Below are positions 46,729 to 48,695 of a stretch of 64,000 nt of DNA, piece after piece. Under the pieces are notes generated by a model. That model had not been told where the DNA came from and ran no database searches. It was given only the letters and a program-made list of their open reading frames with translations. The DNA is from an uncultured Alphaproteobacteria bacterium (lineage in GTDB: Bacteria > Pseudomonadota > Alphaproteobacteria > Rs-D84): NCBI GenBank assembly GCA_905234185.1, contig CAJOGC010000001.1, forward strand, positions 31,765 to 95,764, in the 5' to 3' direction. Numbering within the stretch: position 1 is the first letter of the stretch; each line of letters opens with the position of its first letter. The position numbers and the translations under genes were made by a program.

Positions 46729-48030
46729 ATGAATAACGACACTATCTTTGCATTATCATCTGGACATGGGAAATCGGGCGTCGCGGTTATTCGCATATCT
46801 GGCGAAAACTTGTCTGACTTTGCGGAACGCATTGTTGGCAAATTTGGCATCACACCACGACATGCCTATTTTGTGAACCTTAATGATAACGCGGGCGAAC
46901 CCATTGACCAATGCATTGTCACATATTTTTCTGCGCCCCACTCTTTCACTGGCGAAGACGTTATTGAAATTGCATCGCATGGCGCACCCGCAGTTATCGA
47001 AAAAATATTCGACTTTTTATCCGCGAACAATATGCGCATGGCGCGCCCTGGTGAGTTTTCGCGTCGCGCATTTTATAACAACAAAATGGACCTAAGCGAT
47101 ATTGACGGACTGGCGGCATTGCTGGATGCGCAAACAGATGTTCAACGTAAATCGGCGTTGTCGTCCATGATGGGCCGCGACAGTAAAATATATGACGCAT
47201 GGCGTACTGACATGATTGAAATAGCCGCATACAGTGCTGCAATTCTGGACTATGATGCAGACGATTTACCGAAAAATATTGGTCAGACAATCAAAACAAA
47301 AATCAAAAAATTATATAGCGAAATAGATAAGTCATTGTCGCGCTATGCGGCGGCGCGCGCCATACGCGGCGGTTTTAATATCGCGTTGGTTGGCGAACCA
47401 AATGTTGGTAAATCATCACTGTTTAATGCAATACTGGGGTCGAACCGCGCAATTGTATCCGATATCCCCGGCACCACACGTGATGTTGTTTCTGCCAATC
47501 TGGATATTGACGGATACTTGGTAAATATTTCAGATACGGCGGGGCTGCGTAAAAACACACGGAACAAAATCGAAAAAATCGGAATCGAACGTACCGAAAA
47601 CGAAATAAAAAATGCAGACCTGATAATTCGTGTATATAGCGAAAAAGCCGGCACAGCAAAAATTGCCGACAACGAAATTGTAGTTATAAATAAATCTGAT
47701 TTATTAAAATCAAAACGTGCAAAAAATGCGATTTATGTTTCGGCAAAAACCGGTGACGGATTGAACGATTTATTGAAAATTATTCGCAAACGGTTGCATA
47801 AATTGACCGACGGGTTGGAAGACAATTTGGTCATAAACGCGCGCACAAAAACATTGTTGGAAAGCGCACACGATGAATTGAAACATGCAACCACAATACG
47901 AGGTGATAACTTTGATTTAATTTCCGAACATGTTCGCGCGGCGGCCGATAGCATTGGCAAAATCCTTGGTACCATCACCGCGAACGACGTCATGGACGCA
48001 ACATTTTCACAATTGTGTTTAGGGAAGTAG
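46729..48030 (+). CDS. mnmE: tRNA uridine-5-carboxymethylaminomethyl modification GTPase MnmE
   Basis: 433 aa with a G domain (GEPNVGKSSL) and the C-terminal …CLGK motif. The last 52 nt are duplicated at 48553-48604. Confidence 0.9.
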   Translation: MNNDTIFALSSGHGKSGVAVIRISGENLSDFAERIVGKFGITPRHAYFVNLNDNAGEPIDQCIVTYFSAPHSFTGEDVIEIASHGAPAVIEKIFDFLSANNMRMARPGEFSRRAFYNNKMDLSDIDGLAALLDAQTDVQRKSALSSMMGRDSKIYDAWRTDMIEIAAYSAAILDYDADDLPKNIGQTIKTKIKKLYSEIDKSLSRYAAARAIRGGFNIALVGEPNVGKSSLFNAILGSNRAIVSDIPGTTRDVVSANLDIDGYLVNISDTAGLRKNTRNKIEKIGIERTENEIKNADLIIRVYSEKAGTAKIADNEIVVINKSDLLKSKRAKNAIYVSAKTGDGLNDLLKIIRKRLHKLTDGLEDNLVINARTKTLLESAHDELKHATTIRGDNFDLISEHVRAAADSIGKILGTITANDVMDATFSQLCLGK

Positions 48031-48102
48031 TTGTTAGTGGCTAGTGAAAGCGCGTCGACGGGGGAACTTGCCCTTTGTATGTGGCACAAAACTCTATTTC
48101 CG

Positions 48103-48131
48103 CGTCATCCCGGCGGATGCCGGGATCCAGT
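48103..48131. repeat. left terminal inverted repeat of the GIY-YIG element (gtcat + 6-bp stem + ggat loop)
   Basis: cgtcatCCCGGCggatGCCGGGatccagt. The exact reverse complement is at 48514-48542. Confidence 0.7.
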
Positions 48132-48147
48132 CGCCAACGGCGACTTG

Positions 48148-48465
48148 TTATTCCACACTGTAACCATAACTTTCTAGTAATCCAGAATACAAATCATGCC
48201 AATCCGGGTTTTTATCAATTATCAATTTTATTTTCCAATTACGCGGCCACTCTTTTAATTGTCTTTCTCGCTTAACCATGGTTTCCAGCAATTCATGATA
48301 TTCATAATACACCAACTTATCGCAATTGTATTTTGCAGTAAAAGATTTTGGATAGACCTTGTTCTTGTGTTCAAATACGCGCCCGATTAAATCTGATGTG
48401 GAACCGATATAAATTGTTCCCATACGTTTTGATGCCATTATATAAACATAACCACCATTTTTCAT
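48148..48465 (-). CDS. GIY-YIG nuclease family protein (UPF0213/YhbQ-like, stand-alone)
   Basis: 105 aa: …GYVYIMASKRMGTIYIGSTSDLIGRVFEH…, with the GIY…YIG motifs, a conserved R, and E in the …RERQLKEW region. Confidence 0.75.
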   Translation of the reverse strand: MKNGGYVYIMASKRMGTIYIGSTSDLIGRVFEHKNKVYPKSFTAKYNCDKLVYYEYHELLETMVKRERQLKEWPRNWKIKLIIDKNPDWHDLYSGLLESYGYSVE

Positions 48466-48513
48466 AATTGAATAATAACATTATTTAATTGGCATCGCAA
48501 GTTTGCTTTCGCA

Positions 48514-48542
48514 AACTGGATCCCGGCATCCGCCGGGATGAC
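48514..48542. repeat. right terminal inverted repeat of the GIY-YIG element
   Basis: actggatCCCGGCatccGCCGGGatgacg is the perfect reverse complement of 48103-48131. Confidence 0.7.
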
Positions 48543-48695
48543 GGCTTGAGGATCGCGAACGACGTCATGGATGCCACATTTTCACAATTGTGTTTGGGGA
48601 AATAATTTTTACAAAAGCGCAAAGAATAAAGTTCAAATAATGTGTGCCAGCTTTCGCCAGCACTACTTTATTATATTTGAATTTTGAACTTTAAA

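Follow-up and report, generated by a model that had tools for sequence, protein, structure and literature searches.

An Ssn-type nuclease cassette followed by an orphaned mnmE gene end in a rumen alphaproteobacterial genome

In the window, a 64-kb stretch of the 233,866-bp contig CAJOGC010000001.1 from a rumen alphaproteobacterial metagenome-assembled genome, the tRNA modification GTPase gene mnmE (120 homologues among the matches listed) is followed by a small GIY-YIG nuclease gene between inverted hairpins, and then by a second copy of its own 3' end (Table 1). The two copies of the gene end form a 58-nt direct repeat (47979-48036 and 48554-48611; 90% identity), made up of the last 52 nt of mnmE and 6 nt beyond it; repeats as strong as this pair number only four within the window, and neither this repeat nor the hairpins and the gene would be expected by chance. 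An earlier note on this DNA, made from the letters alone, had described a duplication of about 52 bp at about 90% identity with mnmE kept intact by the upstream copy, and this description holds, with the correction that the second copies of the gene end and of the hairpin start one base later than it gave, at 48554 and 48515 instead of 48553 and 48514. The two substitutions that it read into the downstream copy are not there: both copies encode the same 16 residues (ANDVMDATFSQLCLGK, then the stop), the four coding differences between them are all synonymous, and the stop codon changes from TAG upstream to TAA downstream. Over its stop and the next 16 nt (TAGTTGTTAGTGGCTAGTG), the upstream copy agrees exactly with what ends mnmE in the lineage represented by L005/L094, and the stop of the downstream copy and the next 11 nt are similar to the mnmE end of L090/L095. 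The upstream copy lies 66 nt from the left hairpin, and the right hairpin lies 10 nt from the downstream copy. A perfect 12-nt palindrome, ACACAATTGTGT, is formed by the SQLC codons of the conserved mnmE end and is present in both copies (48003-48014 and 48578-48589).

The gene between the repeats encodes a 105-aa protein and is, as noted before, the only one there; a profile search places a Pfam GIY-YIG domain at residues 5-79 (E = 4.9e-13) and finds no other domain. The GIY-YIG catalytic residues Y19, G21, R29, H33, E67 and N86 are invariant across 19 homologues. A PDB sequence search with the protein gave no match, and NCBIfam holds no specific model for it, yielding only a sub-threshold match to an intron endonuclease. 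Its closest described counterpart is SsnA of Neisseria meningitidis, a 94-aa single-domain GIY-YIG protein (CDD cd10448) that binds the hairpin repeat NTS (CGTCATTCCCGCGMAVGCGGGAATCYRG) in single-stranded DNA only and cleaves a few nucleotides upstream of it; Ssn enzymes have been characterized from Neisseria and Wolbachia (Chenal et al., Nat Commun 2025, PMC11893778; cited here and below from excerpts of that paper). The window protein is 45% identical over 91 residues, at full length, to a 94-aa open reading frame (ORF) of Neisseria gonorrhoeae (E = 3e-31; hhalign probability 100%, E = 1.2e-39). This ORF is the sole 94-aa homologue in that genome and sits among 16 NTS copies in 3.3 kb, and from its length and setting we infer that it is the SsnA orthologue. 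The reference locus was taken from L179 (NZ_CP119140.1), one of two 2.17-Mb N. gonorrhoeae records that are labelled plasmids and are evidently chromosomes.

The hairpins that bracket the gene are a 29-nt inverted repeat with the sequence CGTCATCCCGGCGGATGCCGGGATCCAGT, on the forward strand at 48103-48131 and on the reverse strand at 48515-48543, with no further copy in the window. The arms are 100% complementary, as the earlier note had it, and none of 100 shuffles gave a match; either arm, when single-stranded, forms a hairpin with a stem of 8 bp and a loop of 4 nt (-9.8 kcal/mol), where a 6-bp hairpin had been proposed. A manual comparison with the NTS consensus gives agreement at 22 of 28 positions; of the six mismatches, four make up two compensatory stem pairs, so that the window stem reads CCCGGC against CCCGCG in Neisseria. 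Of NTS the 29-mer retains the CAG, the CGTCAT flank and the C that comes after the palindrome, the last two being critical for the characterized system (PMC11893778). Because the protein is homologous to SsnA, keeps the catalytic residues and is flanked by NTS-like hairpins, we file the core at 48103-48543 (441 bp) under the Ssn/NTS system; judged by its sequence, it is a new NTS–ssnA–NTS cassette.

This combination of a GIY-YIG gene with REP-like inverted hairpins had been taken for undescribed, but it is the architecture already reported for the Ssn/NTS system, in which motifs flank the gene on both sides in 42% of SsnA homologues, and whose authors likened NTS–ssnA–NTS, as speculation, to an insertion sequence (PMC11893778). 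The window locus shares with that system a single-domain GIY-YIG protein of about 100 aa, inverted hairpins with a CGTCAT 5' flank and a C-CAG 3' flank, and further gene-less hairpin pairs elsewhere in the genome. It differs in its host, an uncultured rumen alphaproteobacterium, and in that the hairpins are sparse, with 4 in 64 kb compared to 16 in 3.3 kb around the Neisseria gene. It also shows filled and empty sites and an orphaned host gene end, neither of which was found in the excerpts of PMC11893778. Homologues of the protein number more than 1100, mostly from uncultured Alphaproteobacteria and Rickettsiales, and among 80 reference-genome loci the same hairpin family flanks the gene in rumen Alphaproteobacteria, Emcibacter, one betaproteobacterium and several Flavobacteriia.

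The interval between mnmE and the convergent LppC-like gene varies among relatives. Six of them (L003, L004, L007, L089, L104 and L170; MnmE 83-95% identical) have empty sites with a single gene end, in which the mnmE stop is followed by a 28-nt terminator hairpin and then by the convergent gene; the insertion proposed in the earlier note is thus borne out by the comparison with related genomes that it had called for. All five contigs with an identical MnmE protein carry the insert, with no empty site among them. The same spot holds a 158-aa membrane ORF in L090/L095, a methyltransferase gene in L005/L094 and accessory genes of 1.4-1.6 kb in L096 and L098, and the inserts of L090, L005, L096 and L098 have neither a duplicated gene end nor an integrase. 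Since the cassette is absent from the closest relatives, the comparison shows that it was acquired, at a spot between the convergent mnmE and LppC-like genes whose content varies from strain to strain.

The cassette itself occurs in other surroundings. In L009 it is 89% identical at the nucleotide level across the hairpins and what lies between them, and no further; the flanks are unrelated, and no duplication borders the cassette. The 66-nt spacer at 48037..48102 has no similarity there, and the identity begins at 48103. Further close relatives lie upstream of rpmE, downstream of rpmG or elsewhere, a 72% identical paralogue is found 150 kb away in the same genome, and one Ssn cassette locus is conserved in three species. 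A search for other GIY-YIG copies flanked by the repeat, as the earlier note had advised, thus finds them at unrelated loci in related genomes. Its claim that the element targets the mnmE 3' end fails, with none of the 11 close cassette relatives at mnmE and the relatives of 72-90% identity at other loci. Because the nearest relatives are at other loci, the hairpin–gene–hairpin unit is shown to relocate as a module without preference for mnmE.

At L009:2757-2810 and in L014, L015 and L178, the 5' half of the Ssn hairpin is repeated in tandem together with a few flanking bases (TTCTTCTTTCWTCGTCATCCCGGCGG twice and GTCATACCATTTTTTTCC eight times, for example); such repeats may have been left by cutting, or by slippage, at the loop of the hairpin. 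Long flanking repeats accompany Ssn cassettes at 12 of 71 loci compared to 1 of 137 controls, but we rejected this as support for a target duplication because the repeats are hairpin modules and not host gene ends.

Of the three marks of an insertion sequence that we looked for, terminal inverted repeats are present as the perfect 29-nt pair. The sequences outside the hairpins differ (TTTCCG and GCTTGA) and include no fixed-length flush duplication, and the sole ORF of the insert encodes the GIY-YIG nuclease and not a transposase fold. The duplicated mnmE end does not fit a transposase-made target duplication. The arrangement resembles REP/RAYT (Y1 HUH) and IS200/IS605 elements in that a small nuclease gene lies between inverted copies of a hairpin recognized in single-stranded DNA, gene-less hairpin pairs also spread, and there is no short target duplication. 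Unlike those enzymes, Ssn has the GIY-YIG fold, lacks a covalent tyrosine intermediate and is predicted to make one cut per strand outside the cassette, which would not excise a strand by itself.

We scanned 81 mnmE loci, each for a second copy of its own gene end, and found four independent duplications. The repeat is 58 nt around the Ssn cassette of the window; 52 nt in L158, around a DUF559 nuclease gene (E = 8e-29) with hairpin inverted repeats of about 47 nt; 34 nt in L100, around a 122-bp gene-less element of the same inverted-repeat family as L158; and 27 nt in L099, around a palindromic insert of about 270 bp. In 918 kb of loci, gene-end duplications were confined to these four at mnmE, with none at other gene ends. 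Because unrelated hairpin elements at mnmE share it, the gene-end duplication is a property of the mnmE site and not of the Ssn cassette. The repeat is present in 4/4 hairpin-bounded inserts at mnmE and in 0/4 other cargo types at the same spot. The L158 element (L158:3166-3730; a distant relative, with MnmE 61% identical) encodes a 115-aa DUF559 (Vsr-like) nuclease between the repeats TTCCCCGCCYTGGGCGGGGTGG...GACGGGGAGGGTTG, and the hairpin-bounded inserts at L100:3805-3994 and L099:3130-3445 are gene-less. At the one locus with a DUF559 element elsewhere that we examined, no gene-end repeat was seen. The 66-nt spacer of the window weakly resembles (CGACGGGG) the inner inverted-repeat part of the DUF559-type elements.

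Across the four duplications, 11 of 14 coding differences between copies are synonymous, where free decay of the orphan would give 36% (P = 0.0015); in L158 the copies, each comprising the last 52 nt of mnmE, differ only at four synonymous sites and the stop codon. The orphan copy of L100 is 100% identical to that of the window over 34 nt. Behind the orphan copy of L099 lies the terminator sequence of empty sites, the same as in L007/L090, and behind that of L158 a terminator hairpin of the empty-site type. Since the differences are nearly all synonymous and each copy carries a different native downstream sequence, matching that of a different extant lineage, the two copies look like two functional alleles of the mnmE end, one foreign and one displaced. 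Identity to the gene ends of relatives was uninformative as to which copy is native, the mnmE end being 80-92% conserved everywhere. We found no account of a recurrent orphaned mnmE end around nuclease-hairpin modules in the literature searched or in the excerpts of PMC11893778.

Our preferred explanation, to which we give a probability of roughly 70%, is that an Ssn cassette was acquired, DNA of a related lineage recombined on the mnmE side, and the resident gene end was left as an orphan. By homology to the Neisseria and Wolbachia enzymes, the Ssn protein would bind its hairpin in single-stranded DNA only. Its cut is predicted a few nucleotides 5' of CGTCAT on the motif-bearing strand, which would put the top-strand cut just left of 48103 and the bottom-strand cut inside 48544-48553. 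One cut per strand, outside each hairpin, would allow neither excision nor pasting by the nuclease alone, and because of this any movement must rely on host recombination. The incoming DNA would have carried its own mnmE end together with the cassette, with homology on the mnmE side only, and its far end would have been joined illegitimately 52 nt before the resident stop, as in homology-facilitated illegitimate recombination; alternatively, the event may have been a Campbell-type crossover somewhere in the conserved 3' block. Either way the resident mnmE end would be left behind. The far end may stem from an Ssn cut beside the right hairpin; that the predicted bottom-strand cut falls in the 10-nt spacer abutting the orphan copy is suggestive only. 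One-ended recombination appears to be the most economical account of the repeat, and it has a precedent in the orphan 3' ends of Rhs and type VI secretion system (T6SS) arrays (PMC5361080). As in the effector arrays of Rhs, contact-dependent inhibition (CDI) and T6SS loci, the 3' end of the incoming module would push the resident 3' end downstream, where it becomes an untranslated orphan (PMC5361080); unlike in those arrays, only 52 nt of a housekeeping gene would be displaced, and there is no toxin/immunity logic.

Several observations weigh against this explanation. We did not find the donor arrangement, with the cassette directly after mnmE and no orphan end. Sliding-window identity revealed no recombination breakpoint among relatives of at most 90% nucleotide identity, in a region that is a general mosaic, and there is no relative above 90% by which the event could be dated. 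That all four duplications fall at mnmE, with other gene ends showing none, is not what random one-ended recombination would produce, unless the mnmE end is preferred as an anchor because it is so strongly conserved. Since 66 nt separate the left junction from the hairpin, the cassette by itself does not delimit the insert. As to the cassette's own identity, the 29-mer is not captured by the degenerate pattern published for the motif, HGTCWYN(0-2)YYVSBRHN(0-5)WNVSBRGN(0-2)RNCYNB (PMC11893778), which requires H at the first loop position, where the 29-mer has G. The same expression finds canonical NTS, and the failure reflects a limit of the search pattern and not of the resemblance of the 29-mer to NTS.

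The main rival reads the repeats as attL/attR-type scars of a site-specific integrative element at the mnmE (trmE) 3' end, SGI1-like and carrying a mimic of the gene end, of which a 517-bp remnant or a miniature element moved in trans would now be left, with the Ssn cassette as cargo or as a later colonizer. The 3' end of trmE/mnmE is the classic SGI1 site. The specificity for mnmE (four events to none at other gene ends), the presence of the last 27 nt of mnmE in all four repeats and the synonymous differences expected of an element-borne mimic all argue for such a scar, and as with the integrative mobilizable elements of the SGI1 family, the insert uses this host gene end, has a copy of it on either side and leaves the gene intact. 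However, there is no integrase- or recombinase-like ORF between or beside the repeats in the window or at the 81 mnmE loci, nor any integrase ORF in the inserts of the window, L099, L100, L158, L096 and L098. The inserts are tiny (122-517 bp in 4/4; 0.5 kb in the window compared to about 40 kb for SGI1), and the repeats vary from 27 to 58 nt, compared to 18 bp. In L158 and L100, unlike in att arms, hairpin inverted repeats abut the direct repeats, and the host class differs from that of the SGI1 family. We consider an integrase-made scar unlikely on this balance. The earlier note had instead favored a small mobile or homing element that regenerates the gene end. Insertion, mobility and a regenerated gene end all stood up to comparison; the homing endonuclease did not, the protein having a single domain and scoring 20.6 bits against TIGR01453 (group I intron endonuclease), whose cut-off is 56 bits.

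In a homing mechanism the GIY-YIG nuclease would cut the mnmE end of naive genomes, and repair would copy in the cassette with a replacement end. The filled and empty sites, the nuclease gene between inverted repeats, the palindrome ACACAATTGTGT within the direct repeat and the same arrangement around the unrelated DUF559 nuclease (E = 8e-29) at the mnmE end of L158 speak for it, yet close relatives of the cassette are never at mnmE, the 105-aa protein has no DNA-binding domain and the mnmE end has no Ssn hairpin motif. The characterized Ssn members, moreover, cut only single-stranded DNA beside their own hairpin (PMC11893778), and DUF559 elements elsewhere, to judge from the one locus, lack the gene-end repeat; we regard homing as very unlikely. 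Lower still in our estimate, and hardly credible, is a duplication of the target in situ, by widely staggered nicks or by replication slippage or template switching at the hairpins, followed by divergence. Inverted repeats do directly abut both repeat copies in L158 and L100, the repeat accompanies all four hairpin-bounded inserts and none of the four other cargo types, and the half-hairpins repeated in tandem (L009, L014, L015 and L178) suggest slippage at such motifs. These points are outweighed by the almost wholly synonymous differences between copies (P = 0.0015), by their different native downstream sequences, by the variable repeat length (27, 34, 52 and 58 nt), by the 66 nt that part the window repeat from the left hairpin, and by the L009 cassette, which has no flanking duplication.

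The architecture of the cassette has been known since 2025 (PMC11893778, as excerpted); what seems new, from those excerpts and the literature searched, is an orphaned mnmE end that recurs around nuclease-hairpin modules of different kinds. The Ssn family was characterized biochemically only in that year, and the window locus and its relatives add natural filled and empty sites, the cassette at different loci and identity that ends exactly at the hairpins. The filled and empty sites, together with the hairpin-limited identity, are direct comparative evidence of a cassette moving as a unit, and the orphaned mnmE end, which recurs around three other hairpin-bounded inserts, offers a testable handle on how such modules enter. 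A bolder proposal, which we regard as doubtful, is that the last 30-50 nt of mnmE are a landing pad for integrase-less, hairpin-bounded mini-elements, often with a tiny Ssn GIY-YIG or DUF559 nuclease, each of which would bring its own allelic gene end and integrate or excise through it, with ends made by single-strand nucleases. If true, it would be the first evidence from nature on the way in which Ssn cassettes and comparable nuclease-hairpin modules pass from one genome to another. If the duplication should prove a mere side effect of ordinary recombination in a variable spot, the locus adds a routine new member to the Ssn family.

Table 1. Features of the mnmE–LppC interval and of the second hairpin pair, in window coordinates.
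Feature	Position	Strand	Remarks
Second inverted pair of Ssn-type hairpins, gene-less	43266-43288, 43362-43384	+, -	Inside 190-nt insert
mnmE, tRNA modification GTPase, intact, 433 aa	46729..48030	+	Pfam TrmE_N, MnmE_helical, MMR_HSR1
Upstream repeat copy	47979..48036	+	Functional mnmE end: last 16 codons, TAG stop, 6 nt
66-nt spacer, gene end to left hairpin	48037..48102	.	Outside shared cassette
Left Ssn-related hairpin (NTS-like)	48103..48131	+	CGTCAT...CCAGT on + strand
Terminator-like hairpin 3' of ssn stop, downstream of mnmE	48129..48145	+	Same hairpin after gene in L009
ssn, 105-aa single-domain GIY-YIG nuclease gene, SsnA homologue	48148..48465	-	Pfam GIY-YIG
Promoter-like site upstream of ssn	48472..48500	-	TTGCGA-17-TATTAT with TG; consensus match only
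Right Ssn-related hairpin	48515..48543	-	CGTCAT...CCAGT on - strand
10-nt spacer adjoining orphan gene end	48544..48553	-	Predicted Ssn cut on - strand falls here
Downstream repeat copy	48554..48611	+	Orphan mnmE end, same 16 residues, TAA stop
Lineage-specific intergenic DNA in place of empty sites' shared terminator	48612..48695	.	Terminator-like hairpin 48644-48663 (- strand)
Convergent LppC/periplasmic-binding-like lipoprotein gene	48696..50270	-	Right border of variable spot; synteny

A looser motif, GTCATYCCNGCNNNNGCNGGRAT, finds a second inverted pair of hairpins in the window, without a gene, at 43266-43384. This pair lies in a 190-nt insert (43249-43438) that separates dciA from ruvC. 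L007 lacks the insert, and there the stop of dciA and the start of ruvC overlap (ATGA); the edges of the insert are a 7-nt repeat, GAAAATR, that restores the dciA stop and the ruvC start. A gene-less inverted-repeat element of about 135 bp (TCCCCTTCG...CGAAGGGGTGG ... GACGGGGTA) lies at 45195-45330, between a 199-aa ORF and yebC, and belongs to the same family as the DUF559-associated repeats of L158 and L100. Beside it is one copy (45144-45192) of a 49-nt AT-rich intergenic repeat, 86% identical, whose other copy is at 10936-10984. An Rfam scan of 42.5-49.5 kb gave no match at E <= 1. After mnmE, a short TTAGTGG-like repeated motif occurs in the window (48031-48046) and in L005 (L005:4312-4340); in L013 it makes up a species-specific insert upstream of the Ssn cassette (L013:2815-2852). 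Elsewhere in the window, two 350-nt stretches (33563-33913 and 37468-37818) are 68% identical and presumably represent paralogous genes 4 kb apart.

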